Positions 14,910 to 64,000 are shown, numbered from the stretch's first letter. The stretch: 64,000 nt of DNA from Sporopachydermia quercuum (GCA_001599295.1 BCGN01000005.1:868001-932000); one strand, 5' to 3'. The notes: generated from the sequence alone by a model not told the origin. A program made the numbers and translations.

Positions 14910-14918
14910 AAATTTTCA
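14910..14918 (-). promoter_or_regulatory. RRPE-like element (TGAAAATTT) upstream of URB1
   Basis: AAATTTTCA on + about 145 nt upstream of the URB1 ATG. This fits a ribosome-biogenesis gene, but the motif is short and AT-rich. Confidence 0.35.
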
Positions 14919-15102: not shown

Positions 15103-15134
15103 AAGTATAGCTAAAGTATAGCTAAAGTATAGCT
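15103..15134. repeat. 11-bp tandem repeat (AAGTATAGCTA) x ~3
   Basis: aagtatagcta aagtatagcta aagtatagct in the URB1/ATG44 divergent promoter region. Confidence 0.8.
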
Positions 15135-28100: not shown

Positions 28101-28686
28101 GGTTAACTATTGATGTTCTTGCGTCTTTTTTCAAATGATTAAAATGGATACATATAACTTTAGATATCTCAATCTTAAGCTTATGAGTTCCGCTATTCGA
28201 TCGGTAATCTTTTCCTGTTAAGAAGNTTAGTACCCCGCGGAAGGACGTTTAGCATTGTCATTTAGTCTTGGCAACTAATCTCTCCTATTGTATCTCTCCA
28301 GAAGCATACAAAACACATACTTAGNTCACAAAGGCCATTCATCCAGTAAGAAATTAGTATTTCTCCAACGTAATACTCACCGATAAGTAGACTTTTCTCA
28401 AAAGTTAGGAACAAATAAAAGAAGTTGAAAACAGTTACCTATTGGATGCTCTCAATTCAACCCTTTACAAAGTTTAGATTAGTATTTTTATCAAAAAAAT
28501 GCATTACGTACATGAGATGAAATTCTTTAAGGCTTGAATAGAAACCTTAACAACTCTTCCATTACAAAAGAGGAAAAACCAGACCGGTATGGGCCTACTG
28601 AAATATCGTAATAGGAAACACATGTTGTGGTTATATATTTTCCTTTTTCGATACTGATAAATATAAGTATATACTATATTATCATC

Positions 28687-28722
28687 TGTATCTATCTATC
28701 TATCTATCTCTCTTTCTCTCTC
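28687..28722. repeat. (TATC)n/(TC)n microsatellite
   Basis: tgtatctatctatctatctatctctctttctctctc is read directly. Confidence 0.75.
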
Positions 28723-29577
28723 TATTATTATATCTATAATAATGAGTGATCTTCTGACGGATAAAAAATCCCTTCTGTAAAGTCATTCTACAAAGGTTTT
28801 GTGATCTTTCTTGCTCGATGAAAACTCTNTTTCCAAGATCTACAGATGTTAGTTCCGACTTAATTTCATCGAATGGTCTGGTAGCAATCTATGAATTCTG
28901 TGTTATTCCAGTAAAATTCTAGGCAGATCAGCCTTCTTCACTTTAAGAAGCAAATATTAACTATTCGAGGGCGTAGACCCTATCAGGCCGACTAATCAAT
29001 TAGAATAATAACCGCTTGTCTACTTAAACATAAAGGAGATATTCTCACTATTTGATTTGTAGTATGCAATCTGAGATACACCTTATCAGGATTACCATAC
29101 TAACTTTTGGATTCGCTCCGCGGCCCAAACTGAAGTTAATCTTCAGTATCCAAGTATACAACTAGTGTATGGCCTAATCATTCAGATTTTCTCTAAATTG
29201 AGTTTTCATTATATTCAAGCTTCAACTTTCCTATATCTCCATACTTGACTACTATTGATCTAAATCAAAAACAAAAGTTGCATTTATATACGGGATATCC
29301 TCGGGTTGTCTTATTTTTCTCCTTTCATTTAAACAAGTATAAATCATACCACACCTATTTCAATGTATATAACGTTATCTAAGAGAGGCATATAACAGTG
29401 CGGAAGCTCACATTTGAAAAAGAGAAATACTTAAAAAAAGTATTCAGTTCTTAATCTCGATTTGATAAGAAATTTCGCTTTTAATTAATGAACTTGAAAA
29501 TCCTCTTGGATGAGATAATCATTTGAGCTAAAGGAGAACACTATCCTACCTACCTATTATTCTACATTTGCGACAAG

Positions 29578-43505: not shown

Positions 43506-46500
43506 CTAACTATTCTCAACCTGCTCAACTTCTTTCATTACATCTTCACGTAAATAAATAGAATTTTCAGCAACAATGTCTCTTTGAATCAATCCACTTG
43601 CCTGTTCCATCTTCTCTTTCAAGACGTCATTTCCCATAATAATAACTGCTTCGATCATCTGGTTGATCATTTCTTCCAATCTTCGGAACATTCGAATCAG
43701 ACTTCCTTCATAAACATCAGTCATTGTACATATTTGAGTGAAACTGGCTCCTTTACACCATGCATACACTACTTCCATCAACTCTGAACGGAAAGAATCA
43801 ACATATTCCTTCTCAGTAATGTCTAGCTTACAATCACGGTACACCTTGGCTAACTTAACAGCTTCTTGTTGCATAGCTTTCAAAGGCTCAGCTAATTCAG
43901 GTCGAAGTTTAGGAACTTCATTTGATTTCTCTTCAAATACAAAACAGCTTAATAAAGCTGCACATTGGGCTGGGGTCAACGAGTTGAAGTTACCATTGAA
44001 TAAAAGCTCCGATAACAAAAGTTCATCACCTGTAGAAATCTCACATGCAACTCTACCTTTTAACTCAATAACATCAGCTTGAGATGTGAATCCCAACCGT
44101 CTAAGTACTCGTTTTCTTTTCTTGAAGTCATCCTCTTGAATAATTGCTTCTGCTTCTGCTATCTTGTCCTTTACTCTCTTTAGTTCTTCTTGCAAAGCAA
44201 TCTTTTCACCATAAGATTCAACGAGCTTCGGTAAATCTGGCGAATTTGCTAAAGGATTGGCTAGCAGTTTTGCTTCTAAGATTTCGATTTTCCTTAAAAG
44301 CTTCTTGAACTCTTCATCATGGATCTTCATATTCTCCACTGGGTCTAATAAAGGAACCCCATCAGGGAACCTTCGTTTCACTTCAGCAATTACTTTCACG
44401 ACTGCTGTTTTCTGCGCTGCACTTCTAATCTCCTTTGGAACTCGTACTCTGACATTGGAAATAGCTTCTATACTATTCAGAGTGATTGGTATTACTTCAG
44501 CTTTTGCCTTATCAGCTTTAACTGGGACAATACCTTCGGGTAAAACTGGGTTTCTAGGTCGGATTTTTTGAACTGGGGAGTCTTTATCAACTTCTGTCAA
44601 TACCTCTACTACCCAAGACTCATGATCTGAATATTCCCGTTGAGGTCCTTTCTTTGGCGCATTTCGTTTATTATGAGCAACAACAATACCCCATCCGAAT
44701 TTCAAGTTCCCTACTGCGATTTTAACTAATCTTCCGGGTTGTAAATACGTTAAACTGTGAGATGGATGTGTGATCACGTGTTGGAGTTCCGAGCCATACT
44801 CATCCAATTGCTTCCGAAGTCGGAAGTATTCTCCGACTGCTGCTTCTTCGGGTAACACCAATGTCTCTAATTGTTCTGTGAGAGAATCCCGTTTCTTTTC
44901 CAAATCAGGAACTGCGGCCGCAGTTTGGTATTGGAAAAAAGACCGAGCTAACAACTCTTCTGGTGGGGTTCCTCCGACTCGGAGCAAAGACAAAATCATG
45001 TTGTATCCAAGATGGAAAGCAGAGTCCAATCTGTCAGCTTGACCTTTCACCATTCCTTTAGCAACATCAGGTTCCATTTTCTCATCGATCATCATAATAA
45101 CAATACCTCTATCATCTTTACCTCTTCTACCTGCTCTACCAGCCATTTGAACGTACTCACCACCAGAAACCCATCGAAATATTTTACCATCCCACTTCCG
45201 CACATTGGTGAAAACTACTGTTTTAGCCGGCATATTTAGACCAATAGAAAAAGTTTCTGTTGCAAATAGAACTTTCAAGAGTTCGTTTTGAAATAAAATC
45301 TCCACAATTTCCTTTAAGATTGGCAATAAACCAGAATGATGAATGCCGATACCTCTACGTAAGAAAGGAAGTAATGCTTTAATTTGCGGCAATGATTTAT
45401 CTGCTTCAGGCAAAACTTCAATACAAGCGTTGAAAATAGCGGAGATTTTCTCCTTTTCAGGTTCTGTAGCAAAATCCATCTTTGAGATTTGTTTAGCTAA
45501 TGTTTCACATTCTCTTTTACTAAAGGAGAAAACAATCACAGGGTTATATTTCTTTAGCCAAATCATCTTCACGATCTTATAAATATCTGAAGAGTTTGAG
45601 CCTTTATTTCCACCTTTAAACGTTTTACCATTCTTACCCCGAGATTCCGTAGAATTGGGATCATCACCGGCTGCATCAGCAATAGCTGTCATCGCTCTTT
45701 GAAAGTTTTCTTCTCTGAAGGTGCCTTTTTCATCAACCACTAAATGAATACCAGAATCACCAGCAGGGAATAAATAATGTTGTAAAGGAGTTGGTCTGTA
45801 TGATGTATAAATAACGTGGCATGGCTGTAGATGAATTCTACAAATCCACCTAGCAAATTCAGCAGCATTTGGTATAGTTGCAGAAAGGAATACAAATCGA
45901 ACATTATCTGGTAACAAGATGATGGTTTCTTCCCACACAACACCACGTTCTTTATCTCTCATATAGTGAACTTCATCAAAAATAACCCATCCAACTTCTC
46001 TAATAAGTTGGTCACCTTTNTAGAGCATTGATCTAAGAATTTCCGTTGTCATAACTATACATCCTGCGTCAGGATTCTGGGTTACATCACCAGTCATGAG
46101 ACCCACATCGCCAAAGGTTTCTTTCAGATCTCTGAATTTCTGATTAGATAAAGCTTTGATTGGTGATGTATAAACTACTCTTTGTTTAGCTCGCAGACTT
46201 TGAGCTATAGCATACTCTGCTACCACTGTTTTGCCAGCAGAAGTGTGGGCAGAAACCAGTACTGATTCATTTCTGTCAATGCAAGCAATGGATTTTTCTT
46301 GGAAAGGATCCAATTGGAAAGGGTAAGTTCTTGCTGGCATTTTCACTTTATGCGATTCGATTGGTATGTAATTGTAGCCTGGAGGATACGCAACTTCGTG
46401 CTTAACTGGATGTCTTAATGTGATAGCACCGGCGGACGATTGTTCATTTGAATCGGATACGGTTGAATCCTCCCTACTATTACTAACGGATTCCGGAGCT

Positions 46501-46844
46501 GACGTTCCGTCAAGAGTAGATGCTAAAGGAATGCTTCTTTCAACTTCCAGTTCAAAAGAGTCTCCCATAACAGGACTTAGATCCTGCTTCGTGGTAGCTG
46601 ATACTAATGCATCTTTCCGTTCAGATTTTGGTACAGTTTCCTGATCTTGTTTACTTCTTTTGACTACTTTCTCCGTATCGCTTTCATCACTTGAGCTCCT
46701 CACTTCCGAAGTACGTTTTGAAGACTTTTCCTTTTGTTCTTTTGAAGGCTTTTCTTCATTTGGTTGTTTTTCACTGTTTGGTAAGTTATCAGGAANAGCA
46801 GGAGGTGCAGACACGTGTTCANCAAACACCGAGAACAAATCCAT
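43506..46844 (-). CDS. MTR4: Ski2-like ATP-dependent RNA helicase Mtr4/Dob1
   Basis: 1112 aa. Motifs [62 protein letters not shown], the arch/KOW region and C-terminal [14 protein letters not shown]. Confidence 0.96.
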
Positions 46845-47747
46845 TTTACGTTATGTTTATGCAGTGTTTGATTCGTTTCGATGCAATTTTCCTCATGAAT
46901 CCATAGATAGAATACGTATAGAGTAAACACGGCCAATAGAACGCAAAAACAACGGCCATAACAATAATTGCTGTTGTTAAATACAATGTCACATAATATG
47001 AGAAATATAACTCTGCCATACAAACGAAAAAATTTGTCAGAATGAACTTCGCAACTCACCATCTATTAAATGATTACGTGATTTTATTTGGCAAGATTTG
47101 GATACNGGTAAAGGGGTAAAGGGGTATAGGAGAGATAATGACAATGAGAGTTAAATGTGAAGAAAAAGTTGATTTCATAATTGTCNGGCCGGAAATAATT
47201 GATTAAAAGAAGAGAAAGAGCAAATTCTTAGAAAAGAATTACTTTATTATTACCATAAACATTGTCATCCTGAATCAAATGCCTGATTCTTCTCCTTTAT
47301 TACACTTTCTGTTCGCGTAATCATTAATAATCGTTCCTCCATCTATTGAGGGGGTAACACGCAAGACCACTTCACAGTTCATTCATTGTTAGAAAAGCTT
47401 GGTACGGGAACTGAACAACAATTCAGAAGGATGGATGAAACTTCTATTAGGTCTAGTCTAATCCATATATTGAAGAATTGTTTGATATCTTCAGTGCCTG
47501 TTCTCTGCTTTTAATGATCATTCCATTGCATCGATTNTCTGAATGTGCATTTGGGCTCCTTTGTTGATTCTCTTTGTATAGCCTTAGTGTACCACTTAAG
47601 TACCCATCAATTTGCAAGGCAATTGGCAGATGGACAGTATATGAATGGTGTTTGAATATACGTTTATCGTTTATATATATTTTGCAGCAATCTTGAGGTA
47701 AATGTGCATTGTTTCTTCTATATTTATATGATATAACAAACGCACAT

Positions 47748-50700
47748 ATGAACACACCGAGTCAGCCTTTTGGCTCTTTTGCTGGGTTTAGTACCCAGAA
47801 AAGTCCAACTGGTAGTGGGACTCCGTTTGGTACAGCGCATAAAAATAACAATGGAAAACCGAATTTTCGGAACAAATCATCAACAGGAAGAGGAAATCGA
47901 GGTAAACGAAACAATTTTGGGAAAAGTGTGGGTAGATCAGAACCTCGGAATGAATCGGAAACTCATAATGAGCGATCAACAGTTCATCAGCCTACCCTGT
48001 CAACAGGATTACCAACAGCGCCAGGACCAAGTCCCCTGCAAATGAATCAAGTGAGAGATCTAGCGGGAAAACTTGGAATCGGCGGTTTAAATCTCGGTAA
48101 TGTTGGTTTCAAATCCCGACCTCAACCGAGACGTCCGAAGCCTAGTTATATGCTTCAACAGCCAGAAATAATGGATCCTGTACCAATAGTAATTGACCCT
48201 TGGGATAAAGCAAATCAGCAAAAAATGGCTCAAATGGAAGCAGAACATACCGGAGACTGGAGTTCACTTCTAGAAAAATTTCAAGACCTTCGTGCTAAAG
48301 AAAGGAATGAAATGGTCAAACGGAACCTCGCTGATGATAACTCAGTTAAAAAGAATATGCAGGATAGACGTATATTTCGAGGGTCTTGTTTGGACATGTG
48401 TCCTGTTTTTGAACGAGTTTTAAGACAAGTAGAGCATACAATTTTTCCTGAAGAATTGGATCCCGAAACTAAAAAGTTGAGCCGAAAATACGCAGTGAAA
48501 AGATTCGCCCGTTCCGCAGGCGGCCCACCTCCGTTACCTTCGGATGTAAGGCCTCCGCAGGTATTGTCTCAAACATTGGATTATTTAGTGGACAACATTC
48601 TTCCCAAACTTCCCACCTCACATAATTTCCTATGGGATAGAACTCGGGCCATTCGAAATGACTTCTCTTTTCAGTATTACTCTGGACCAGAAGCCGTTGA
48701 CTGTCATGAACGGATCGCCCGAATACATATACTATGCTTCCATATAATGCCACAGCATAACAGGACGTTTTATTCACTTGAAATGGATCAATTTGATAAG
48801 ACATTAAAATCATTGACACAGTACTATGATGGGATTCGGCATTATAACCGACAAGCTCCGAACGAAGCCGAATTTCGCGCATATCAACTATTATACTATA
48901 TCGATTTACCCGAAGTTGAGCGAGAAGTTTTGGCGTTACCGGAACGGATTATCCAAGATTCTCGAGTTCAATTGGCATTGAAGGTCCGAAGTTTAGTTAG
49001 TGAGAATTCGGGTCGGAACGGACCACAGACTTCTTCCGGGTTGATTACGTCATTTTTTAAACTCCTAGCTCGGAAAGAAGTTCCCTACTTATTTGGGTGT
49101 ATTTTAGAGTTGATTTTTTCTAAACTTCGGCTGAGAGGATTGCGGGCAATGTCTAAAAGCTTTCATAAGCGGGGCATTCCGTACCCGTTACCGAGATTAC
49201 GACACACACTAGGGTTTGATTCGGAAGCGGAAGCGGAAGCATTTGTCACTTATTACGGACTATCGATTAGCGAGCTTGAAGGAGTAAAACATGTGGAATT
49301 AAAAACATATAATGAGGTGCAATGCCGGACGAAGGAAGTTTACGATCAGCCATTTTCGGAAATAGTAGAAATGAAGAGAAACGGAAATGATTATAAGTGG
49401 TTTATTAATCAAGGAGAGAAGAATCTCGGTATCTCGGGACAAGAACCCGATAAAATATTGGACTTTAATAGCCGCACGGTTGTAAGTACTAACCTAAAGG
49501 AAACCTCATCTGGAAATACTAATATTCAGGGTTTTGTGGCTCCGATAGTACCGGAGAAACCTAGAGTTCCAGAAGCTGTGATTGAATCCATAGTATCGAA
49601 AATAGCGGAAAAGATAATAACGACAGAAACGAACCGTCTANTATTGGAGATCGAATCGTATGTTATGTCCGAGAGAAAACGGAGAGACGAAGAACAGCAG
49701 ACAAAAGCAGCGGAACTTCGGAGACAATTAGAAGAAAAGAAACGGGAAAAAGAACGTCAGGAAGCAGAAGCAAGAGCAAGAGCAAAAGCGGAAGCGGAAG
49801 CAGCTGCAGAAGCCGAAAGACTGAAGAAAATACAGCAACTACGGCAAACAGTGGTCTTGGAGTCATCGGAATCTATCAGAAATTATTTAATTGATTCTTT
49901 AGTACATGAGATTGTTTATGAGATCTCAGCCGATAAATTCCATTCAGTATGGCAGAAAAAATTACTAATTTCTTCTCTCAATAAGAAAGTAGACGCATTT
50001 AGGCAATACCGATTAGAAAAGGAAGCAAAACAGCGAGAAATTGACCTATCTAAGAGGCTATTGGGGGCAGCAAATCTACAAGCTGCCATCAAAAAGTCTG
50101 TTCAACTTCGGCATAAACCTGATCTTTCTTTGTCATCTTTAGCTAGTAATGAAAATGATACCATAATCGGATCTATACCGGAACAAGATCCTTTTTGGCA
50201 GCCATTAGATATTGAGTTATGGAAATCGGAACTCAGGAAGGCGGAAATAGCAGTCGAAAGTGAGGTTGTATTCGATTGCCGGAACTGTACAAATGATTTT
50301 ACCAGCTGGATTGACATGAAGATTAGACCTTTGACGCGTACGAAATCTCGGTTCAAAATCAGGACTATTTTTAATCAATTAGAAACGTTCGGAGAAGCGT
50401 ATCGTACTATTTATCCTATTCTCAATCTATCGGAGGTTTCAGGAGTTAAGAACCTAATCTGGGATACGATCCGAAATATGGATACAAAACCTGTTCTGTG
50501 TATAATGTGGTGGTCAGATGAGGCTTCTGCGGAAGTTGGAGCTTGGAATGATTTAAACCCAGAGTTCGGAAAATACAGCAATCTTTCTGTTTGGGATTTT
50601 TCACAATTCCGAGAGAAAAACCGGTCGGAGATAAATACGGAAATAATAACTATGATAATATCCGTTTTATCCAAAGCAAATAACGAGTCTTCGATATGGA

Positions 50701-50981
50701 AGGAAGAAATGGAAGAGAAGAAACGGAAANAATTAATCGATGCAGAACTAATGTCAGTCCGGAAGAAAAAAAGGAGATTGGTTCAAGAATCTCTAGTACC
50801 GTATAAACAGATATGCTATGATAATACCAGAGTTGAAAATAAGAGGAATGTCAGTAATAGCGGAAAAGATGGGGATAGGGAAATGACTAATACTAAAGAG
50901 AATTTTGAGCCAAGAGGCTTATTGCATTTGAAAAATTTAATCAATAGTATTAACAAGCGGAAGTATCAAAGAATAACATAA
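47748..50981 (+). CDS. SAC3: TREX-2 mRNA export scaffold Sac3/GANP
   Basis: First ATG 47748 with an FG-like N-terminus. Motifs FRGSCLDMCPVFER, AVKRFARSA, PLPSDVRPPQVL..TLDYL, FLWDRTRAIRNDF, ERIARIHI and NEAEFRAY. Confidence 0.92.
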   Translation: MNTPSQPFGSFAGFSTQKSPTGSGTPFGTAHKNNNGKPNFRNKSSTGRGNRGKRNNFGKSVGRSEPRNESETHNERSTVHQPTLSTGLPTAPGPSPLQMNQVRDLAGKLGIGGLNLGNVGFKSRPQPRRPKPSYMLQQPEIMDPVPIVIDPWDKANQQKMAQMEAEHTGDWSSLLEKFQDLRAKERNEMVKRNLADDNSVKKNMQDRRIFRGSCLDMCPVFERVLRQVEHTIFPEELDPETKKLSRKYAVKRFARSAGGPPPLPSDVRPPQVLSQTLDYLVDNILPKLPTSHNFLWDRTRAIRNDFSFQYYSGPEAVDCHERIARIHILCFHIMPQHNRTFYSLEMDQFDKTLKSLTQYYDGIRHYNRQAPNEAEFRAYQLLYYIDLPEVEREVLALPERIIQDSRVQLALKVRSLVSENSGRNGPQTSSGLITSFFKLLARKEVPYLFGCILELIFSKLRLRGLRAMSKSFHKRGIPYPLPRLRHTLGFDSEAEAEAFVTYYGLSISELEGVKHVELKTYNEVQCRTKEVYDQPFSEIVEMKRNGNDYKWFINQGEKNLGISGQEPDKILDFNSRTVVSTNLKETSSGNTNIQGFVAPIVPEKPRVPEAVIESIVSKIAEKIITTETNRLXLEIESYVMSERKRRDEEQQTKAAELRRQLEEKKREKERQEAEARARAKAEAEAAAEAERLKKIQQLRQTVVLESSESIRNYLIDSLVHEIVYEISADKFHSVWQKKLLISSLNKKVDAFRQYRLEKEAKQREIDLSKRLLGAANLQAAIKKSVQLRHKPDLSLSSLASNENDTIIGSIPEQDPFWQPLDIELWKSELRKAEIAVESEVVFDCRNCTNDFTSWIDMKIRPLTRTKSRFKIRTIFNQLETFGEAYRTIYPILNLSEVSGVKNLIWDTIRNMDTKPVLCIMWWSDEASAEVGAWNDLNPEFGKYSNLSVWDFSQFREKNRSEINTEIITMIISVLSKANNESSIWKEEMEEKKRKXLIDAELMSVRKKKRRLVQESLVPYKQICYDNTRVENKRNVSNSGKDGDREMTNTKENFEPRGLLHLKNLINSINKRKYQRIT

Positions 50982-51361
50982 ATATAAAAGTTGGTGATGG
51001 ATTTAATGATTGGAGTGATTTACTGTATAGTACATGCATAGGTATTTATTAGTATAGCGGGAAAAATACAGTAATAACGGAAACAATGTTAAAGTAGAGG
51101 AATCTGAAAAGAGAGAATATGTAGCAAACCGGAAACAGTGCAACACTACTGCTAATACTACTACTACTACTTAATATCGTTTAAATAAATTATTCCATGC
51201 CAATACCTTATCTATAATACATGCTATTGAATGAATAACTAAAAATGAATAACCCTAAAAGCCCAAACCGAAAAAAAGTGAATTAGTTATTGATGTAGTT
51301 CTAGTTACCTCTTATTGTAATTATCATGGTAACTGAGTTTCTTGATTGAATGTCATTCTTA

Positions 51362-52891
51362 TTAATCTTGTTGATCGAAATTAATAGGAACCCATCTGGA
51401 ATTAACAGAACCTTTGATGGTTCCTTTTATTTGCTTGACATGATTCGAAGGAGAAGAAGGAGTAAATGACTGTGTGTTGGAATCCGTTTCTGAATCCATT
51501 CGAATCCACGGTGGTAACTTCTTAGAGGAAGCTTCCGGCATTATAGTAGTATCCATAGGAACTGGATCACTTCTTGGAGGTAAAACAACGCAGTCCCAAA
51601 GCTTTGAGTTCGGAATAGTCATAGCTCTGGACTTAGCTGATAATTCCAATGCGTATCTTCGGAGGAAATCAGGATTAAGTCTATGTTCTCTTGGTCGTTG
51701 TAATCTGGTTGCTGGATCAGGTGACGTTAGCACGTGATAAGTCTTCAATGCTACCGGCTTCCGAGATTGAGATTTATTCAATCCTTGAGGAGAAACTAAT
51801 TCCGCTTTCACATCCGAGANCGATTCCGATTGTTCCGACTCTTGTTCCGATTCTGCCACTGTTTCCAAATCTGTTTTAGGTCTTATACTATGGTGATTAT
51901 GTTGTTTAGGAACTGATGTTGCCACCATCTTATCATCCGTCATTCTTGGAGAAAATGACATAACCGGCGATGCTGGTTTGTGAATTAAAGCTCTGAATGA
52001 TTTTGTAAGATTTGATACAAACGAAGGAGGAGAAGGTGATCGAGATGAAACCGATCCGGAATCGTCATCATCAGACATTGTTTCCGATTCTTTCTCGGAA
52101 ACGATCTTTCTTGGTGAAGACAAGTCCATTAAAGTTGAATCAGCCATTTCTTCATCGGATTCTTCTTCTGATGGTCCAAAATGGAATTTAACACCCGAAG
52201 CAGTTAATGAAAGTGGATGAGAATCGGCTGGCACAGTTTCCATGGGAGATAAATAACTCTCAGAGTTCAGCATCATGTTACCCGATGATAAATTAGGTGA
52301 TATAATACCGCGGGATCGGGAAATACCGGGTAATGAAGAAGGTAATGATGCAGAGAAGCCTGTTGATGCTGTGGAAGAGGCAGATGATGCGGAACCAGAT
52401 GATTCCACTGTACAAGTGGATGCAAATGAAAAGCCGCCATTAGATTCATAAGTTGAGTTTAATGAAGAGTTTGGTGAATAATCAGAATAAGAGCCCTCAT
52501 CTTCGGATCCAGGAAAGTCCAAAGATACATTACGCATGTTTTCAATGGGAAATCTTGGCTCGGATCTTGTTCCAATAGAAAATGTTAATGGTGAGTTAGC
52601 GAATGATTCCCATGTTTCATCGTCTGGTGGTGGGTCATTTATCATTGAATTGCTATGAATTATTGTGGGAGAGGAAGATATTAGTGAACTTTTCGTTGGT
52701 TTCTTTTTGATGATTCTTGTTCCATGATTTCCACTTGACAAAGGCTTTCTCACTTCCAAATGATTGTGCGGTTGCGATCGACTCCTCCGATACTGTGCAC
52801 ATGATTCACGATTTGGTATTGGGATTGCAGTAGCTGACAAGACATCAGCAACTGCTGGTGTCATAGCTGGTAGATAATTATATGTAGCCAT
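51362..52891 (-). CDS. Ser-rich, largely disordered protein with a conserved-looking fungal C-terminal motif; function unknown
   Basis: 509-aa ORF. Motifs FSPRMTDD and RPREHRLNPDFLRRYALE...LPPRSD look like a conserved fungal domain, but I cannot name the family with confidence. Confidence 0.7.
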   Translation of the reverse strand: MATYNYLPAMTPAVADVLSATAIPIPNRESCAQYRRSRSQPHNHLEVRKPLSSGNHGTRIIKKKPTKSSLISSSPTIIHSNSMINDPPPDDETWESFANSPLTFSIGTRSEPRFPIENMRNVSLDFPGSEDEGSYSDYSPNSSLNSTYESNGGFSFASTCTVESSGSASSASSTASTGFSASLPSSLPGISRSRGIISPNLSSGNMMLNSESYLSPMETVPADSHPLSLTASGVKFHFGPSEEESDEEMADSTLMDLSSPRKIVSEKESETMSDDDDSGSVSSRSPSPPSFVSNLTKSFRALIHKPASPVMSFSPRMTDDKMVATSVPKQHNHHSIRPKTDLETVAESEQESEQSESXSDVKAELVSPQGLNKSQSRKPVALKTYHVLTSPDPATRLQRPREHRLNPDFLRRYALELSAKSRAMTIPNSKLWDCVVLPPRSDPVPMDTTIMPEASSKKLPPWIRMDSETDSNTQSFTPSSPSNHVKQIKGTIKGSVNSRWVPINFDQQD

Positions 52892-55800
52892 GGTGAGATT
52901 TTGTAGTCTATATATTTGATTTCATTATTCTGTTGTCAGATTAGAAGATAATATATTTCTTGGTAGCTATTATAAAAGCTAAATTTCCTTAGTGTCTTGT
53001 AGTGGCCGTTAAATTCTTAGAAATTGTAGTGACTGTCGCGTTGAATAGATACAATATAATTTTGGATACAATGTAATTTGACTTGTCGCCCAGCAGCTAC
53101 ATATAGTGTTGATAATCAGATGGACAGACACTAAACAAAACAAAACGTAATTAGTATGTCAATTTTTTCAANATAATATTGAAAGTATAAATAATTGCAA
53201 TNGAAATAATGATTTGATAGTTATTTGAAAAATGGTTGACTGACGGGAAACAAGTTAAGTAAATCTCTGGAAAAAAAAAAAGAAGTAGAAGGAGAATCTA
53301 TCAGTTATAAGGAAGGAAGAAGGCAGTTGTAGTAAAAGCAGGTAANAAAAGCGATGGACAAATCATTACATTAGGAATTGGGACGTAAGACATAGAGTTT
53401 TGCATAATGTTGGGGGAGTTTTACAGACAATGTTAAGGTTTTAATAGATTTTAAGGTTAAGGTTAAAATTTAATTTATTCTAAGGAAAAATAAGCGCCGA
53501 TGATTACCAAGACAAGTTTGAACTTTTTGGGACAAGGAAGACATTCTACGATAGAAATTGAATGAGAGGTATTCGAGAGAATATTTGGAAAATGTACAGG
53601 AATGGTAGGAATTATCAAAGAAGTTATTTAAATTGCTTTGCTTCCAGTGATTTATGTGATCTATTTTTCATTAGAAGGTGTATTAAGCGACATTTGGTAG
53701 TCAGGTAACTTAGTATGGGGTGTTGGAACTGGTGGGAAAAGGTCCAACTAGACACAATATTGTCATGCTCGGTATCGTGACTACATTTGAATATCGGATT
53801 TCCTTTGGTTTCTTGATTGAAGCTTATCGTATGAACAGAAAAGTTATCTGCTTACTGCATAAAATTTTTGATATGAACGCGACCTTTTAAATGCAAACAT
53901 AAATGCTCTTTCTTGACCTCCATTACTTTTTTTTTCCTCAACTACTACCATACATCTTCATTTTGCTTNGTGTTTTTCTCTATTTACTTCTCTTTGACCC
54001 ATACCGTCTATATCGAGCCTAATTTTGTCATGGAAATGTCATTGTATCCCAAGTATCATTTTTTCTCAAAAAATGATTTCCTACTTTCCTACTTTCCTAT
54101 TTAAGCAAGTAGATTAAGTGAATATGTTCCTATTTTTGGATACTAACCACATCGGGAAGATCCTTGTATGAAAGATTAATACTGTCAAGTGCATAATAAT
54201 TGTTGGAGAAATAATAGAAGAGGACATTTTTTGGCGAATTATCAAGGAGTTCCGATGGAGATGAGACATGTGGTCAGCATTGGTGCTGGGATAGGTCCAA
54301 AGATATAAAAGTTAGGTCTCGGATATTTTAATTTTGAGGAAATATAAACTCCAATAGCTAGTGACGGCAGCAATTGCAAAAAAAAATATTTATTCATTGC
54401 TATAGGTAACCATTTACGACGCTTTTGTTTTGATTAAGATATGGTATTTCTTTATTCAATAGATTCAATAGATTATGTAGATCTTGTGCTTGGAGCCAGA
54501 GCAGCTAAACTAAGCTTGAACCAAAGAATGCTGAAGGTAATATTAGGGTGTCTAAAAGATCAAGTAGTCTTACAGGCCTAAGTTTTGTTAAACTAACAGA
54601 ACAACTAAACTCCATAATTCGTAATTCGTACACGATTTTTTCATTATCTTTAAACTATTTTATCTCCAAGAAGTGTCGATCTGATTGGTTGAGAGCTGCT
54701 TTCTCTTATTATGCCAATATCTGACAGAAAACGCTACACGATCACTTTTACCGCTCTTACAATGACAGTGATTTCTTCATAATTTGCATTATTTTCTTCC
54801 CAGTATGTAATTTTCTTCTCACATTTTTATTTCTTGGTAGTTGTTCGCACTGCTGTACAGCATTCAGCTAATGCATCTAGTTCAAGTCACCACATCTCTA
54901 CCTACCTGCTTCTGTTCTTTCGTTAAATGTGATATAAGAAAGTTTTTTCCTTGTCAGAGTAGGCGCTAAATATTTCCCATTCCAGAACATATAGCTGGAT
55001 ATTGGACATGTCACATGGTAGTTTGTCATGGAGAGAATTCTATTCCAAGACTGTGGAATGTTCTATATATAAAAATGAAGCGCCAATCCAATTAAATAAT
55101 AGGAGGATGTATTTTCAATCATTTAATATTCGATATATTTCGTTTAATTGTATCTATCTATATCTGACGTATATATGGCTCATCAATGAAATAGTTCAAG
55201 GTATTATTGAAGNCAATTATCATTGATCAGTTGAATGGGCATTTATTTGTTGGAACGGGTACAACGGCAGAGAGATTGCTGAAAGAATCTTCTATTTGAA
55301 AAACTGATAGAAATATTTATAATATTTTTATACTAGGATAGAAATCTAATTCTTCTTCGTTTGGCAGACAATTCCATTTCTGACAAGTTCACCTTCGTAA
55401 ATAAAAAGTTATTATGAAATGACTTCTAAATATGTAGACGTGGTATGACATTTATTTAGTTATTGTCACATTTCCATTAACTTTCTAATAAATGAACAGC
55501 TCAGGAAAGTTTGTTCGGTTTCATGGCTGAGTTTGGTATTAATTAAGATTATCCAATTGTCTTGGATCGCTTATAAGCAAGCGGTCTTAGCTGCCAGGCC
55601 GCAATTTCAACTAATAATATTGACTCGTCCATTACACTTCTACTATCAAGCGAGAGGTTAATTGTTGATTCTCAATTATTTATTGTTGTTCTAACGTTAC
55701 ACCACACGCAATATCTCACTTGCTATCCCGCTTCGTACTTATGAAATTATTATCTATCACTTGTTCGAGGAGCTCTAGCATGTCCATTTTAAAGCATTTT

Positions 55801-57087
55801 GATCTATCTTTATTAGAGTCAGAAATATATATTCTATCACAATAGTAGCCGTTTTTCTTTTCTTGATCAAGCCATTATCAGACTTCCCGTACATTTTTGT
55901 TTATTCGCACTAATTTTTTCTCATTTTAACCTCTTAAAGTAACGGGACTTGCCGTCTTACTTTCCCTTCTTTCAAGGTTTCCGCAAGGCGCCGTTTGCCC
56001 TTTGTCACGTTAAAGTTTCATTTATGTCACACATGTTTTCAACCTCTATCGTATCTCCGAAGAACAAAATTCCTATCCTAGGCACTTTGACATTATCGGC
56101 TATCCTTTAGCAAACATCCAAGTCGTAGAATAGGTAAGCTCTGGCAAGGTTTATTAAATCATCTTCTATCGATTGCTCTGGACAATCTGGACAAAGGTCA
56201 GTACCTGCTAGTTTATTAAGTAGAAAATAAATGTTTATTGATAGCATAATCAGCTATCAACCTTGCCATGATCGAGATATTGTGAAGACAATTGGATAAC
56301 AAAATGTTCTGGAAGGGAAAAGGTGGCTCAGGTTCTATTCAATTTATTCTAAGATTACTCTTCTTTACTGATTTAATGGTTTTAGTGATAATACACATGA
56401 ATGATTGCTCCTTTAGTTTGATCTCCTTCTTGTTCTTCCTCTGCTAGATAAAGTATTACATTCTACAATACGCTTGCTTAGCTAAAGAGTTTCACTTTCT
56501 ATTTCTCACTTTCATGTACTTATATCAATTGAAATCAAATAATCCAATCCAAATCTCTTTCTACCAACTAAAAGCGCACCTACAAACATACAAATAAAAC
56601 GCAGCATTGCTCAACATCCTTTTCCAAACATTAACTTTATCCATATGGTACTTCAAAATTTATGGTTCCTAACCATGGAACACTCAAGCCAAAACAATTG
56701 AATTGAATCAACTCGTTATTCATTAATTGAATGAATATTACGGAAAATCGTAAATGTAGTGGTAAGTGAAACAAGAGAGTACCCCTGTAGCCCCAAAATA
56801 TAGTTAATCGTTAAAATATAATGAAAGCAAATAAATACTCTTCGCGCGAAATCATATAGTGATATAGAAAAACTGAACACATCTCTTATCGACCTATGTG
56901 TACTGTTCCATAATATGCTTTTGCAGCTAACTAATTTGTTCTCATTTCATGAAAATCCAAAAATAAAAATTATACATAGTAAATACAACAAAATAAAATA
57001 AAATAACTTCTAAGAAATCTTCCTCAACCCCAAATCTTTTCAATTTTTGAAATCCGTATTTAAAATAGTATGCCCTAATTGGTTTGA

Positions 57088-58770
57088 TTACTTCTTCTTA
57101 GGCTTAGTAACAGTCGTCCAAGAATCGTCATCTACATCTACTGCACTTTGCTCAACAGCAAATTTCTCCATAGCAGTTAATTGTTCTTTCTTCTTGTTGG
57201 CCTGAGCTTCAGTAACTTCATTATCTTCATTAGTATCATCATCATCGCCAATGTTCAAAATATCAAACTTCTTGCTCAAATTGTTATAGCTCTTCTTTGA
57301 AACGTTTTCAGATTCAGGTTCATTGGTGGCATTATTATTTTGTGAAGAGGCAGCATCATTACTTTTTCTCCAGTTGTTTTCACCGACATTGGTGGAGGAA
57401 ATCTTTTTGGAATTTGGTCTCTTACCGAAAGGTTTTGCTTGTTTTTCAGCGGAAGCAGTATTAGCAGCCGTAATTTCACTTAATTCTTCTCTTTGCTTAG
57501 AAATCTTTTCTTCAATCTTCTTTTCTTGTTCAGTGATATCAACTGGCTTAGCATTTCCAAATGGATTGAATGAATGTTTGGTGCTTGCTGATTCAATCTT
57601 TTCACCGGAATCAGCTTCGATCTCCGATCTTGATCTTAAACCAGTCCATCCTTTCTTGGCAGGTCTGCTTTGTTGAAAGTTCTTACGGGAAGTATCGCCA
57701 TCAGCTTGAGTGATAGGACCTTTACGAGACGACCAATCTAAATCGGCTTCAGTTTTATGAGGTAACCTTGGCTCAGAAGATCTGCTTTCATACGCTTTAC
57801 TTTCAGTTATTGGTCCTTTTCTTGAAGACCAATCAAATTCTGGTTCTGGTTCTCTTGGAGCTCTTCCTCCTCTGAATTTGTCTCTTGATTCGCCACTATC
57901 TGATATAGGACCTCTACGGGAAGCCCATTCAAAATCTTCTTTAGGTTCTCTGGGAGTTCTGAAACCTCCCCGTCGTTGTTCGGATTGATTGTCATCACTA
58001 GTGATAGGTCCTTTCCTTGAAGACCAGTCGAATTCAGGTTGGGGTTCTCTAGGAGTTCTACCACTTCTGAGTCCTTCTCTTTGTTCACCATCATTGGAAA
58101 TTGGCCCTCTACGAGAATTCCAATCAAAATCATCATTACGAGGTTCTCCTCTTGGTGGTCTACCTTCATTGTTTCTGTTGAGTCTTGAAGGTTCACCATT
58201 AGAAATAATAGGTCCACGTCTAACTGACCAGTCAAATTCTTCTTGAGCTCTTGGTGGTGCTGCAACAGCCACATAAAATTTTCTACCGGAATATGTACTA
58301 GCATTCATTAGAAGGAATTTTTCTAATTGATCAGCAGTTTCGAACTCAACGAAGATAATTCCTTTAAGACGATTATTGACCATATCTTGAGGAGCATCGA
58401 GAGAAACAACTGAACCATCTCCAATAGCTTGCTCAACAAAACTTTTGAATTCATCAATATCTAAATCCCAAGCAACGTTATTCACCTTTGCTTTAAATGG
58501 CGGAGCATCAGGAATTGGAAATGTTTCTCTTTGAAACCCTATGCCACCTCCCATACCACCTCCCATGCCACCTCTGCTACCAAATGAATCACTACCTCCN
58601 TATGGACCTGATCTATTGAACTTGAACCTGTTTTCTGTTTCTACAATTGGGATTTCGGTGGAGAACTTTTCAACATCAAAGTCATCATCGTCCCAACTGC
58701 TGATTTTACTTTCTCCGACAGACTCTAAAAAGTCCCCAAGAGCCATTTTCTTTCCTTTAATTGGCGCCAT
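57088..58770 (-). CDS. TIF3: Translation initiation factor eIF4B
   Basis: MAPIKGKKMALGDFL...SWDDD, an RRM (PPFKAKVNNV...KGIIFVEFET), DWxxRxG repeats and NPFGNAKPVD. Confidence 0.9.
   Translation of the reverse strand: MAPIKGKKMALGDFLESVGESKISSWDDDDFDVEKFSTEIPIVETENRFKFNRSGPXGGSDSFGSRGGMGGGMGGGIGFQRETFPIPDAPPFKAKVNNVAWDLDIDEFKSFVEQAIGDGSVVSLDAPQDMVNNRLKGIIFVEFETADQLEKFLLMNASTYSGRKFYVAVAAPPRAQEEFDWSVRRGPIISNGEPSRLNRNNEGRPPRGEPRNDDFDWNSRRGPISNDGEQREGLRSGRTPREPQPEFDWSSRKGPITSDDNQSEQRRGGFRTPREPKEDFEWASRRGPISDSGESRDKFRGGRAPREPEPEFDWSSRKGPITESKAYESRSSEPRLPHKTEADLDWSSRKGPITQADGDTSRKNFQQSRPAKKGWTGLRSRSEIEADSGEKIESASTKHSFNPFGNAKPVDITEQEKKIEEKISKQREELSEITAANTASAEKQAKPFGKRPNSKKISSTNVGENNWRKSNDAASSQNNNATNEPESENVSKKSYNNLSKKFDILNIGDDDDTNEDNEVTEAQANKKKEQLTAMEKFAVEQSAVDVDDDSWTTVTKPKKK
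57710..58240 (-). repeat. Six coding repeats (F/L)(D/E)WxxR(R/K)GPI of ~30 aa within eIF4B
   Basis: FDWSVRRGPI, FDWNSRRGPI, FDWSSRKGPI, FEWASRRGPI, FDWSSRKGPI and LDWSSRKGPI are visible in the translation. Coordinates are approximate. Confidence 0.85.
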
Positions 58771-60719: not shown

Positions 60720-63700
60720 TCATTTTGTTCCGGAGATTGCAGGAAGAGTGTTTAAAGATCTATGGCCAATATTATCTCCAACATTCTGATTAATATCATG
60801 ACTTGACCCCATTATTGAAGAATCAATATTGGGAACAGTTGTACCCAAGTTAGGAATTCTCCAGTTGTCATTCAACGTTTGCTGGATTGGTTTATTGCTT
60901 GCTGATAGGCCATTTCTACTCAATGAATAAGCTGCTAATGAATCAGAAGCACTCGGTGTCATGGGAACAGAGCCTGCACCCATTTGATTCATTGGGATTC
61001 TTGGCAGGGACGTAGAGAAAGACATTGCATCTAATTTGAATAGGTCAAGGTTAGCAGTTTGGGGTAGGGGTTGTAGTGAACTAGTCTGATGCTGTTGTCC
61101 ACCAACGCTATCTCCATCAAAAATTGATCTTCGACGAGGTGAAGGTAAGAATGTACTTAATTTTGACTGTTGTTGCTGTTGTTGTGGTTGTGGTTGTTGT
61201 GGTTGTGGTTGTGGTTGCTGTTGAGTAATGGGTATAGCGAAAGAAGTGTCACCTAATAACATTGAGTCTTTCCTTGAAAAATTTGATATGTTTCTTAAAC
61301 TCCTATTATCTTCTTCTTCTTCTTGCTCACGTTTATTCAACTCGCTTAGCAGCTCATCTAAGCTATTCTTGAGCAATCCAGTCAAATAATACATAGGAGG
61401 TAACTTTTCAGTAAGCTTCACCCAAACCCTTATCAACAATTGCGAGGTTTTTTCTTTTTCACTCCAGTTATCATCGCCATCCTGATCAAATCCATTGGAA
61501 ACGTTACTTGAAGGTGATTTGGCATTCATCTCATTGCCCATATGCCAATTACTATCAAAGCTCAAATCAGCAATGTTACTACTGCCTTTCCACTCAACAA
61601 GATTAGAAACTAATCTGTTAAGAAACGTGTAAATGCTGTGATCGCTATTTGAAACAAATTTTGTATTTTGAGGATCGTTAAAATTTCTCTCAAGGGTTTT
61701 CTCGTAGTTAACAGAAAATTTAATAAGAGAAAGGAAACACTCAAATTGAAACCAAACACCATTGAACGCAAACATTGGAGACGAGTAACAACTTGGTAAA
61801 ATTGTATTTAAATAGTATTCAAATCCTGAAAGACAAATCAATGCCAGCGAATCCAAGCAATTTGATAGAATTGGTTCAGCTAGTGAAGGTAAATCGTTTG
61901 CTTCACTATTCATCAAGCCAATCAAACTTTCAGTTAAGACGCGTGATGACTCCATGGATGCCAAAGCGTTACCAAACTCCGCAAATTCAAAATGAAGATG
62001 TAATTGACATGATCTGAATATAAATGAGCTTGAAACAGCTAAAGGATGCTTCGATTCCGAGAATATGCTGTATAAAGAAGACGGAGAATTAAATATTTGA
62101 TTGAAAACATAATCAGCAATTGAACCCTCTAAATTAGGCGATTCGACTTTTAAATCATCAAAACATGATTTAGTAGAAGAGATTTGACAGTTAACGATAT
62201 TAATAAAACCAGAATTCGATAAAGTGCACGGCCATTCTAATGATTCTTGTAAAACAGCGTTTGAAACAGATGTTTGCCAGCATTCCAAAGCTGATTTGAA
62301 ATGGTTCCTCACAAATTGAGATAATGGAAAAGTGTTATGTTGACTAAAGGAAGATCTTGTTGCATGAGAACCTCTGGATGAAGTTGAACTGGTATCATCA
62401 TTTGCGCCATGCAATGCTNGGAGTTTTGATAGCTTTTTCCTATTCTCTATATTAGAATTGATAATCTCATTCATAATGCCAGAGATGAGAATGCGGTAAC
62501 CAAATGTTGAAAGATACTGAACAGTTTGATTAAGAAACAGAGCGGACATTGCCTCCTGGAATGTAAAAGCTGTTCTATTCCTATTCGGTGATACTTTTCG
62601 TATTGTGGCTTGTTCTTGCATGTAATACTGAATCCATTGAGAATCAGAGTCAAAAGAAAAACTCCATAACGATTCAGAACACGGTAAATAAATTCTTTCT
62701 ATATCAGGAATAGTAACAGAAGGTGGAGTCATATTGTAGACCTGGGAGACTGTTGAGAGCATCAAATATGCACAGAAAATACTTCTTCTCGCTTGTTCCA
62801 TCTGGACCCATTCTTTCCATAATGGCGGTGTAGGTAAAATAGGATTACTCTGTTGGCTGCTGAGAGTTGTTTTCACTATTCTATTAACAACAGTAGTCAA
62901 ATGAGATCTTAAAGGCTCAGAATCAATGAAAGAGGACCTAAATTGATCATTACTTCCATCATCAGTTCCTTTTCTATTCCCATTATTAGTCATTCCATTA
63001 TTGACACCACTATTGACGCTACTATTTTGATTGGCAGTCCCTGTTGAAGATTCAGGAACCCGTATACTCGAATCATTAGTTTCCTCAGTCTTAACTATAT
63101 CCTGATGATTACCACCTGGCGATGTGGCCATTCGTAAAGCTTTAGAAGCTTTGGCAACTTTTGTTGACCAAATAGCTCCAATATTTAAGTACACCAGGCA
63201 CTGAAGAACCCATATTGGTACCACAGATGATGGTACAGCAAGATGCGGTAAAAGCCCTGAATAACTTGATAAATGATACGATTCAGCAACAGGAATATCT
63301 GAAGCTACTATAGCTCCCAGAGAGCAAATGGCAGCCAAGAGAGGTTTAGGACAGGAAACTGGATCAAACGACTGTAAATGCAGTAAAGGGTATTGAGGTT
63401 GAATAAGAGTTAGGAAATAGAATAAATATTGATTCAAACGAATAGAGTCCTTAGGATAAGGAGATAAAGCAGGAAATGCAAATCTAGGCAATGGTGATTG
63501 GCTGGTTGGTTGTTGATGCTGTTCATTATCTTCAATGCCATCTCTCATGTCTTTTAGCTCTCTTGGTTCTCTGGAATCTCTAGAATCTCTGGAATCTCTG
63601 GCCGAAGGGNTTAATGGTGTAGGATTTGGTTCTATCAAAGGATGTAATGCCTGCAGATGTTTATGAGAACTTGTTGATGGATGCAACTGTAAAGGTGGAG

Positions 63701-64000
63701 ATTGAGCGACGTAATTCCGTTGGTAGTGTCTATCATATTGCGTTTGAGAAGGAGACTGTGTATCATTGAGATTCTGGTTGAGGTTTTGGTTGATATTGGG
63801 GTGAAAATGAGGTAGCTGTAAATGATTTGGTAGCTGTGAGGATGATAAATTATTAGGCTCTTTCTCAGGCAAGTTGTTATTAATGAATTTTGATCGTGAT
63901 TTCTTGGCCCGTTCAGCTCTCTCGGCAGAATGGACAGTTCTATCGTGTCGTAACAGAAGATCTCTTCGAACGAAACATGAATTACATTTGGGACATTGAA
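60720..64000 (-). CDS. C2H2 zinc-finger transcription factor with fungal-specific TF domain (Adr1/Tda9-type); 5' end outside the window
   Basis: The frame stays open to the window edge, upstream of the ORF-track start, and reads QCPKCNSCFVRRDLLLRHDRTVH (C2H2 finger). Downstream Fungal_trans-like motifs: YF..IQPQYPLLH..SF, LLAAICSLGA, WKEWVQMEQARR and LPCSESLW. Confidence 0.85.
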   Translation of the reverse strand, partial: QCPKCNSCFVRRDLLLRHDRTVHSAERAERAKKSRSKFINNNLPEKEPNNLSSSQLPNHLQLPHFHPNINQNLNQNLNDTQSPSQTQYDRHYQRNYVAQSPPLQLHPSTSSHKHLQALHPLIEPNPTPLXPSARDSRDSRDSREPRELKDMRDGIEDNEQHQQPTSQSPLPRFAFPALSPYPKDSIRLNQYLFYFLTLIQPQYPLLHLQSFDPVSCPKPLLAAICSLGAIVASDIPVAESYHLSSYSGLLPHLAVPSSVVPIWVLQCLVYLNIGAIWSTKVAKASKALRMATSPGGNHQDIVKTEETNDSSIRVPESSTGTANQNSSVNSGVNNGMTNNGNRKGTDDGSNDQFRSSFIDSEPLRSHLTTVVNRIVKTTLSSQQSNPILPTPPLWKEWVQMEQARRSIFCAYLMLSTVSQVYNMTPPSVTIPDIERIYLPCSESLWSFSFDSDSQWIQYYMQEQATIRKVSPNRNRTAFTFQEAMSALFLNQTVQYLSTFGYRILISGIMNEIINSNIENRKKLSKLXALHGANDDTSSTSSRGSHATRSSFSQHNTFPLSQFVRNHFKSALECWQTSVSNAVLQESLEWPCTLSNSGFINIVNCQISSTKSCFDDLKVESPNLEGSIADYVFNQIFNSPSSLYSIFSESKHPLAVSSSFIFRSCQLHLHFEFAEFGNALASMESSRVLTESLIGLMNSEANDLPSLAEPILSNCLDSLALICLSGFEYYLNTILPSCYSSPMFAFNGVWFQFECFLSLIKFSVNYEKTLERNFNDPQNTKFVSNSDHSIYTFLNRLVSNLVEWKGSSNIADLSFDSNWHMGNEMNAKSPSSNVSNGFDQDGDDNWSEKEKTSQLLIRVWVKLTEKLPPMYYLTGLLKNSLDELLSELNKREQEEEEDNRSLRNISNFSRKDSMLLGDTSFAIPITQQQPQPQPQQPQPQQQQQQSKLSTFLPSPRRRSIFDGDSVGGQQHQTSSLQPLPQTANLDLFKLDAMSFSTSLPRIPMNQMGAGSVPMTPSASDSLAAYSLSRNGLSASNKPIQQTLNDNWRIPNLGTTVPNIDSSIMGSSHDINQNVGDNIGHRSLNTLPAISGTK

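Follow-up and report, generated by a model that had tools for sequence, protein, structure and literature searches.

The window analysed here, a stretch of 64,000 nucleotides of Sporopachydermia quercuum DNA (GCA_001599295.1, BCGN01000005.1:868001-932000), carries an MTR4 RNA helicase gene of 1112 amino acids (43506-46844, minus strand), a SAC3 gene of 1077 amino acids for the TREX-2 scaffold (47748-50981, plus strand) and a Ser-rich gene of 509 amino acids (51362-52891, minus strand), which belongs to an unnamed fungal family and whose product had no Pfam match. All three ORFs are intact. MTR4 and SAC3 diverge from a 903-bp promoter region (46845-47747), and SAC3 and the Ser-rich gene converge on an intergenic gap of 30% GC (50982-51361). 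The adjoining gap at 52.9-57.1 kb has no stop-to-stop frame longer than 87 amino acids. Searches of the sequence returned no tRNA and no Rfam match, and none of seven window proteins was matched exactly in the protein cluster collection. A transcription-factor-like ORF at the window end starts, by eye, with a C2H2-type pattern and has no Pfam hit.

The CGG/CCG domain and its limits

These housekeeping genes are overlain by a domain in which CGG/CCG is strongly enriched. Between 44.5 and 52.6 kb, 191 sites were counted against 83.5 expected from a null in which coding DNA was synonymously recoded and non-coding DNA was shuffled locally, whereas 80 of 80 overlapping 8-kb windows outside the domain gave observed/expected ratios of 0.50-0.95. 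Elsewhere in the window, over ~55 kb, density is at background, and the non-coding DNA outside the domain has 172 sites against 249.9 expected. When all 32 strand-collapsed trinucleotides were scanned in 4-kb windows, CCG/CGG at 48501-52500 reached 125 sites against 37.9 (z 13.7), compared with a top z for any trinucleotide of 4.7 at positions 1-44000 and of 3.9-7.2 in all 19 comparison loci of 12 kb or more. Per-gene synonymous tests gave 105 sites against 33.0 in SAC3 (z 12.5), 37 against 17.7 in the Ser-rich gene (z 4.5) and 47 against 33.1 in MTR4 (z 2.3), and the remaining 17 of the 20 window ORFs fell between z -2.2 and +1.9.

The first-pass annotation, made by eye, had described a domain of about 9 kb over the three genes. 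Its site counts were right within a few sites (17 at 48961-49260, where about 16 were claimed; 11 at 44761-45000, as claimed; 11 at 51781-52080 instead of about 9; 2 in one control window and 1 in the second), and the excess over the three genes stands, but the domain is uneven. Its extent is 4.5-8 kb, over which changes at silent codon positions have raised the number of copies of the word three- to fivefold. A strong core on both strands (48001-52500), with observed/expected ratios of 1.9-5.1 per 500 bp and a peak at 48501-49500, is accompanied by weaker patches within MTR4. One lies in the coding region of the stalk and beta-barrel (44501-45000; 17 sites against 6.5 expected), and a weaker one in the poorly conserved N-terminal coding region (46251-46750; 12 sites, with ratios of about 1.5-1.7 in overlapping 500-bp bins). 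The profile is that of a smooth peak whose edges fade inside genes irrespective of gene limits: the 3' third of MTR4 (43.5-44.5 kb) and the first ~400 bp of the Ser-rich gene lie outside the domain. The intergenic enrichment that had been claimed holds for the convergent gap (5 sites against 2.3 expected, all 5 counted within 51050-51270), but the divergent MTR4-SAC3 promoter is a hole in the domain, with 5 sites against 8.1 expected. Contigs of three sequencing runs, which may be the assembly's own source, showed no differences and no variants against 47187-53171, and the domain sequence is no assembly error.

The enrichment is not due to GC content, general CpG content, repeats or gene identity. 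GC at third codon positions away from the motif is 291/1077 (0.27) in the core and 2218/7618 (0.29) outside, the G-ending codons of the two-fold K/E/Q families make up 0.31 and 0.33, respectively, and GC per kb within the span is 0.36-0.42 against 0.356 for the whole window. There is no general GC gain, and ordinary GC-biased conversion is therefore not the source; a hotspot of GC-biased gene conversion, for which a general rise in silent-site GC would be expected, was rejected on the same GC3 values. The earlier conclusion that the signature depends on chromosome position, and not on protein content or codon bias, is supported. At 48-51 kb, CpG observed/expected rises to 1.07-1.30, from values of mostly 0.4-0.8 in the rest of the window, but in/out ratios for the remaining six NCGN classes are only 0.89-1.40, which speaks against the suggested CpG-context modification.

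No pair spacing was preferred among three orientations and 40 distances (1-40 bp), except for the overlap CCGG (z 6.4); one further cell had z 3.5, from 3 counts. The 10-bp and nucleosomal periodicities proposed for checking were absent (p 0.60 for 9-12.5 bp and p 0.54 for 120-260 bp). Nor did long repeats, whether direct, inverted or tandem, account for the word; of the 34 TRF rows, 5 lie inside 44.2-52.9 kb, all of them short arrays.

The word and its substitution routes

Synonymous choice was analysed with a conditional-logit model in which 692 words of one to five letters were compared. CGG/CCG came top (z 16.9, odds about x4), followed by GGAA (z 5.3) and TCGG (z 5.0), whereas generic CG gained only 3.8 log-likelihood units. 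The favoured extended word is TCGGAA, which has 17 dispersed matches against 2.3 expected and no single dominant site. With its CGG core, A-rich 3' flank and T at the 5' flank, the word has the form of a putative monomeric Zn2Cys6-type site, a flank pattern typical of the family; it may also bear some resemblance to the CENP-B box. Nested models with Rgt1-like additions at +3/+4 gave no gain.

The excess is present on both strands and in all three frames, codon junctions included. In SAC3, the antisense word is enriched too (43 against 15.5 expected), while sense-strand CGG is somewhat preferred (extra coefficient 0.64, 3.9 log-likelihood units), in the same direction in all three genes. The gains come by several substitution routes, transversions included. 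Where G at a fourfold site would complete CGGA, it is used in 24/49 cases in the core against 14/156 outside, T in 5/49 against 86/156 and A in 11/49 against 41/156, so that T falls and A does not; arginine after C is encoded by CGA in 10/27 cases against 3/63. The A-to-C and T-to-G routes are favoured, as is the CG-free word GGAA. The depletion of T before G (TG/CA at an unadjusted z of -7.9) goes beyond what selection for G alone would predict, which hints at a mutational component.

Homologous genes and a possible protein footprint

Homologous genes elsewhere do not share the enrichment: CGG/CCG observed/expected is 0.22-1.16 in 36 SAC3 homologue loci against 2.07 here, which makes it lineage-specific. 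The nearest relatives are distant (at most 80% identity in the MTR4 core and 40-48% in the SAC3 domain), and MTR4 and SAC3 are no nearer to one listed yeast than to another, none of which qualifies as a donor. Synteny was not seen either, as none of 16 other window proteins matched any of 70 SAC3 loci at E 1e-6.

An amino-acid footprint of the word in SAC3 and MTR4 is only suggestive. It was sought among seven dipeptide classes in four regions, with homologues that are themselves mutually related and a query that forms a long branch; on these terms, the [STAP]E dipeptide frequency in SAC3 residues 185-560 (0.032) exceeds that of all 120 homologues (maximum 0.026), and that of the MTR4 stalk (0.037) exceeds all 60 homologues used. 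The C-terminal part of MTR4 is also high in [STAP]E, at a level reached by 2% of homologues, and arginine makes up 9.0% of SAC3 residues 185-560, which about 1% of homologues match. SAC3 codons bearing the motif agree with the consensus in 25/38 cases and other codons in 117/189, which is no greater departure.

Origin and possible function of the domain

The reading that we somewhat favour is that selection has produced a dispersed array of monomeric Zn2Cys6-type sites, by which a chromosome domain is marked over genes. Among the four options offered in the first-pass annotation, an array of binding half-sites fits best because the word extends to TCGGAA, has several routes of gain, and is one in which CG outside CGG/CCG adds little; a pair spacing of the kind needed by Gal4-type dimers was not found. 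Putative binding words, short, unpaired and orientation-free, would be dispersed across the stretch, having built up in working genes chiefly at synonymous positions and probably in part through tolerated amino-acid changes. The cause would be weak selection per site for binding by a Zn2Cys6-type protein that reads the density of sites over several kb, with no single fixed dimer site, and the density may mark a chromosome domain (for segregation, anchoring or folding) rather than a promoter. Selection on the word is inferred from composition; the protein class of its reader and any function are also inferences. A word of 3-6 letters is insufficient to name its reader. Two candidates were set aside: a Gal4-type dimeric Zn2Cys6 UAS, because the half-sites have no fixed spacing and the promoter is at background, and a nearby zinc-cluster gene as the reader, because the ORF at the window end starts as C2H2-type and not Zn2Cys6. 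Zinc-cluster domains recognise CCG triplets (PMC13017519; 10.1101/241067).

The main rival is a functionless local bias, by which the word gains an advantage here from mutation, mismatch repair or gene conversion. C might, for instance, be lost more slowly in this context, or heteroduplexes at a long-lived recombination hotspot might be repaired with a context bias; the word would then accumulate by drive, a process that has been proposed for the uptake sequences of bacteria. We consider this possible, though on balance unlikely. CpG sites of yeast mutate at elevated rates that depend on context, and the smooth peak with edges that ignore gene limits, the word without spacing or phase, and the strong loss of T before G in the core are all as such a bias would have them. 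It would, however, have to act with no general GC gain, leave other CG contexts unchanged, favour A-to-C and T-to-G changes as well as GGAA, and possess a reader of its own for a sequence of five to six letters. The promoter is the least constrained DNA in the span and is yet spared, which plain regional mutation bias does not predict. That same sparing, together with a word carried by transcribed DNA and mildly preferred on the sense strand of all three genes, would suit a signal in mRNA or translation, such as rare codons or an RNA-binding motif in SAC3 and MTR4, two nuclear RNA-handling genes whose adjacency would be incidental. This is improbable given the antisense enrichment, the use of all frames and codon junctions, the edges inside genes, the word in the unrelated Ser-rich gene and its ordinary density at the 36 SAC3 homologue loci.

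A CpG-island-like region, shaped by cytosine methylation or shielded from it, would account for the raised CpG ratio at 48-51 kb, but the rise is limited to CGG/CCG, CG adds little once CGG is modelled, and the nucleosome-linker period is absent, and we regard this origin as very unlikely. The contiguous block with its distinct signature also recalls an introgressed or transferred segment from a donor with different word usage, as had been suggested. Against this, codon usage and GC3 outside the word are like those of neighbouring genes, the edges fall within genes, the inner promoter is ordinary, and MTR4 and SAC3 are equidistant from the listed yeasts, so that introgression seems hardly credible.

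Dispersed-motif domains such as the pairing centres and rex sites of C. elegans and the matS and SlmA sites of E. coli consist of many short regional sites, some of them genic, whose density is read for a chromosome-level role, although their motifs are longer and more specific and their domains much larger than here. DNA uptake sequences, too, are longer words than the 3-6 letters seen here, and this type was rejected because density is at background elsewhere in the window (~55 kb) and the word is short and degenerate. The uptake sequences of Haemophilus and Neisseria resemble the present case as short motifs accumulated in coding DNA, where they raise the frequency of the peptides they encode and sit at poorly conserved residues (PMC2817400). 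As described there, they are nevertheless bacterial, genome-wide, far more exact and tied to natural competence, whereas the present word occupies one domain of 4.5-8 kb in a eukaryote. In the Yarrowia-type origin, an ORC-Cdc6 motif of about 30 bp has been reported, and the consensus given lacks the CGG word (10.64898/2026.03.10.710760).

More specifically, the domain could be a regional centromere, or its positioning signal, over essential genes, specified by the density of Cep3-like zinc-cluster words placed at silent codon positions; this is a tentative reading that we hold to be rather unlikely. In the point centromeres of Saccharomycetales, CDEIII is bound by Cep3, the Zn2Cys6 protein of CBF3 (10.1101/241067; PMC13017519), of which homologues have been recovered from 1,084 species (PMC13017519), and the accounts given place the origin of Ctf13/CBF3 only in Saccharomycetales and Saccharomycodales (10.1101/241067; PMC13017519). 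The CCG core is common to CDEIII, whose consensus WWTCCGAA has the six-letter word at its centre (PMC13017519), but CDEIII is a single short non-coding site per chromosome beside an AT-rich CDEII, in contrast to about 190 unpaired sites in genes. A point or proto-point centromere, which would be short, non-coding and built around an AT-rich CDEII, was rejected because the domain is mostly coding and has no CDEII-like tract; none of the eight most AT-rich stretches of 80, 120 or 200 bp lies in 44-53 kb, the nearest to the domain being at 53155 (84% AT over 80 bp). A single CDEIII was rejected in view of the 17 dispersed cores, 3 of which have the WW flank by eye, and a Ty5-cluster or inverted-repeat centromere because the longest inverted pair in 40-64 kb is 40 nt at 70% and LTR-like direct repeats are absent.

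The genic regional centromeres of Pneumocystis, 4.8-8.0 kb long, repeat-free and placed over active genes, have the same size and setting (PMC10327204), and the present domain is likewise below 10 kb, repeat-free and placed over intact genes. They are reported to share no motif and to be GC-poorer than the genome (PMC10327204), whereas a word defines the present domain, whose GC content is not low. Short motifs, one of them containing CCG, mark centromeres outside Saccharomycetales in Phaffomycetales, namely a 17-bp motif with CCG in Starmera quercuum and arrays of a 21-bp motif in Wickerhamomyces anomalus (PMC12711049). These are long, few and intergenic as described (PMC12711049), whereas here the word is genic and no long repeat is present. 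Six gene names or S. cerevisiae ORF identifiers, looked for in the supplementary text of PMC13017519 (8 files) and PMC12711049 (3 files), did not occur there. A literature search, with most subscription papers outside its reach, found no description of such a domain in budding yeasts.

The domain suggests a hidden chromosome landmark, possibly a centromere over genes. If the word is selected, it would give yeast coding DNA a further layer of information, one that works over a whole chromosome domain and has even nudged protein sequence; such a layer is known for bacterial uptake sequences, and no report from budding yeasts was found. If the bias is one of mutation or repair, it would be local, word-specific and about fourfold, and would be misread by analyses of codon usage and selection. 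If the centromere reading were true, it would represent a sequence-guided type, intermediate between regional centromeres of the epigenetic kind and point centromeres, in a lineage that does not belong to the orders in which the latter arose, with one such domain predicted per chromosome. It would also provide a sequence handle for locating centromeres in early-branching yeasts, and the recruitment of Cep3, a CCG-reading zinc-cluster protein, to the centromere would become directly testable, as an alternative to the Ty5-LTR route.

Extent of the CGG/CCG enrichment

The CGG/CCG site counts made by eye in the first-pass annotation proved correct on recount. Between 44.2 and 52.9 kb of the window no trinucleotide is more enriched than CGG/CCG (194 sites vs 54.4 expected); the words ranked next all contain or overlap it, and the leading 6-mer is TCGGAA (22 vs 2.8 expected). 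A two-change-point fit placed the domain at 44.5-52.6 kb or, almost equally well, at 47.8-52.4 kb. The excess survived a null that preserves every protein and the local non-coding composition (191 sites vs 83.5 in the span), and under this null all 80 of the 8-kb windows outside the domain had observed/expected ratios (o/e) of 0.50-0.95. With the post-hoc choice of word and place allowed for, z for CGG/CCG is 13.7; elsewhere, the highest-scoring trinucleotide reaches 4.7 within the first 44 kb and 3.9-7.2 across 19 fetched loci. The sequence of 47187-53171 is identical in contigs of three runs, which are possibly its source. The enrichment is real, strong, specific and not accounted for by ordinary causes; the mechanism is what we infer from it.

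The proposed domain of ~9 kb stands as an enrichment but not as an even one: o/e is 1.9-5.1 in the core at 48.0-52.5 kb, across SAC3 (47748..50981, +) and a Ser-rich gene (51362..52891, -), ~1 in the helicase core of MTR4 (43506..46844, -) and 2.6 in a patch at 44.5-45.0 kb. The word is at background in the divergent MTR4-SAC3 promoter (46845..47747) and in the initial 250 bp of SAC3. The right edge adjoins a 4.2-kb gap (52892-57087; GC 32-33%) whose stop-to-stop frames are all at most 87 aa; it holds 27 CGG/CCG sites vs 35.9 expected, although a few gather at 55.5-56.0 kb (10 vs 6.0). Should the domain be pericentromeric, this gap would be a candidate for its gene-free core.

A word and its routes of gain

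The signal is a specific word rather than a shift in composition. The four NCGN classes with CGG/CCG have in/out ratios of 2.1-4.6, the remaining six classes 0.89-1.40, and GC3 where the word cannot form is 291/1077 in the core, 166/588 in MTR4 and 2218/7618 outside. Synonymous choice was fitted with a conditional-logit model whose training set was 8955 outside codons. Among the 692 words compared over the 1416 codons of the core, CGG/CCG ranked first (coefficient 1.39, z 16.9), followed by GGAA (z 5.3) and TCGG (z 5.0), and CG contributed 3.8 log-likelihood units; in the 741 codons of MTR4, CGGA ranked first (z 6.5). The word occurs on either strand and in every reading frame (SAC3: sense 62 vs 17.4 expected, antisense 43 vs 15.5).

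It is gained by more than one substitution route. G is used at 24/49 fourfold sites preceding GA in the core vs 14/156 outside, Pro is CCG at 21/94 vs 28/403, Arg is CGG at 25/107 vs 19/417, and Arg after C is CGA at 10/27 vs 3/63, with AGA losing share; Glu after nCG is A-ending in 22/25 cases vs 70/97 for other core Glu. The helical or nucleosomal periodicity proposed as a check was absent, pair spacings within the domain revealed no dimer spacing beyond CCGG overlap, and searches found neither tRNAs nor Rfam families, nor any long repeat.

Homologous loci and gene setting

The enrichment is not inherent to SAC3 genes. In the matched stretch, 36 of 70 fetched SAC3 loci (longer ones included, several redundant, many probably non-yeast) gave o/e of 0.22-1.16 vs 2.07 in S. 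quercuum, and the best 2-kb window among 37 loci of at least 5 kb reached at most 1.45 vs 2.29. The encoded proteins appear shifted to word-compatible dipeptides: [STAP]E in SAC3 exceeds all 120 homologues, which are related to one another, and in the MTR4 stalk all 60 homologues used (every second full-length hit, non-independent). Word-bearing codons of the stalk match the consensus in 7/17 cases vs 73/105 for other codons; SAC3 showed no such difference (25/38 vs 117/189), and [STAP]E is raised in the C-terminal part of MTR4 too, which counts against a footprint. The Ser-rich gene is a member of a small fungal family that has no name, with C-terminal motifs common to five weak relatives (208-298 aa) of about half its length; its Atlas look-alikes are hypothetical proteins.

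The window is yeast DNA of 35.6% GC with 20 long non-nested ORFs. CTG corresponds to Leu at 6/6 conserved aligned positions of MTR4, a seventh lying in a variable column. In a tree of 55 of 120 hits the MTR4 branch is long and separate from the Serinales, Pichiales, Phaffomycetales and Saccharomycetales sequences sampled, a loose placement in a tree without early-branching yeasts; the nearest relatives are distant (MTR4 core at most 80% identity, SAC3 domain 40-48%). SWD2-HCS1-URB1 (1078-14766) and GDI1-RTR1-EMP65-COX15 (18308-40439) form two blocks whose genes are neighbours in S. cerevisiae too, which suggests that an old gene order has been conserved in this lineage. The HCS1/SMUBP-2 helicase is split over two ORFs (4471-6736, -; 1B domain 6221-6736, AAA domains 4471-6069), probably by an intron or frame break. 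Two gaps, 14767-18307 (3.5 kb) and 25183-29577 (4.4 kb), have no ORF of at least 150 aa; the former probably holds the missing GDI1 5' part, because the GDI1 Pfam match begins at model position 99, and the latter contains the densest run of N positions. A mild CGG/CCG rise at ~27.5-29 kb (o/e 1.33) is the best 2-kb window outside the domain. AT content peaks at 2804-3017, in intergenic DNA that lies 41 kb away from the domain (81% in 200 bp and 90% in 80 bp). A TIF3/eIF4B-like gene (57088-58770, -) encodes an RRM together with some six imperfect repeats of ~32 aa (DNA spacing 96-99 and 195 bp). The ORF at 60720-64000 (-; 1092+ aa, open to the window end) has a C2H2-type zinc-finger pattern at its start and by eye resembles a fungal transcription factor, with no Pfam hit at E 0.01.

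Candidate mechanisms and roles

On balance, we favour a selected binding array that marks a chromosome domain, its protein and role being what the pattern leads us to propose. A sequence-specific reader would be needed because of the 5-6 letter preference, the use of both transitions and transversions, the few-kb limit and the spared promoter. The main rival, a functionless local word-specific bias of mutation, repair or conversion, is possible and rather doubtful; the loss of T before G beyond expectation in the core speaks for it. A signal at the RNA level is improbable, CpG methylation more so and introgression hardly credible, each having failed direct tests.

For the binding array, the simplest reader would be a Zn2Cys6 domain, a fungal fold that reads CCG triplets according to passages of PMC13017519 and 10.1101/241067. 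Selection would be weak and spread over many interchangeable sites; the per-site odds ratio of ~4 fits this, so that regional density rather than any single site would count. The promoter hole may reflect selection against sites where transcription would be disturbed or, alternatively, an effect confined to nucleosomal gene bodies.

The most attractive candidate role would be a gene-spanning regional centromere, which we consider unlikely. Counting against it, CGG-type words are generic for zinc-cluster proteins, the CDEIII-type WW flank is present in just 3/17 matches (by eye), and the domain has no AT-rich core and no GC trough. Pneumocystis centromeres are alike in size and setting (4.8-8.0 kb across active genes; passages of PMC10327204), and in the portions of PMC13017519 covered the centre of the CDEIII consensus is the domain's word and homologues of Cep3, the CDEIII-binding Zn2Cys6 protein, are widespread. 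The centromeres in the covered part of PMC12711049 are intergenic, unlike this domain.

Point, proto-point, Ty5-cluster and inverted-repeat centromeres, Gal4-type UAS clusters, CpG islands, GC-biased conversion hotspots and genome-wide uptake sequences were each rejected, a defining feature of each being absent. A comparable domain was not described in the literature searched, of which coverage was incomplete and excluded figures that may bear on whether genes of this region are linked to centromeres, nor in the passages covered of 10.64898/2026.03.10.710760 and PMC6692504. In its working, the domain is most similar to dispersed-motif domains, and it appears to have a coding-sequence footprint in common with bacterial uptake sequences (part of PMC2817400). 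As a putative domain of dispersed binding words it is of a known kind and, as far as our searches reach, new for budding yeasts.
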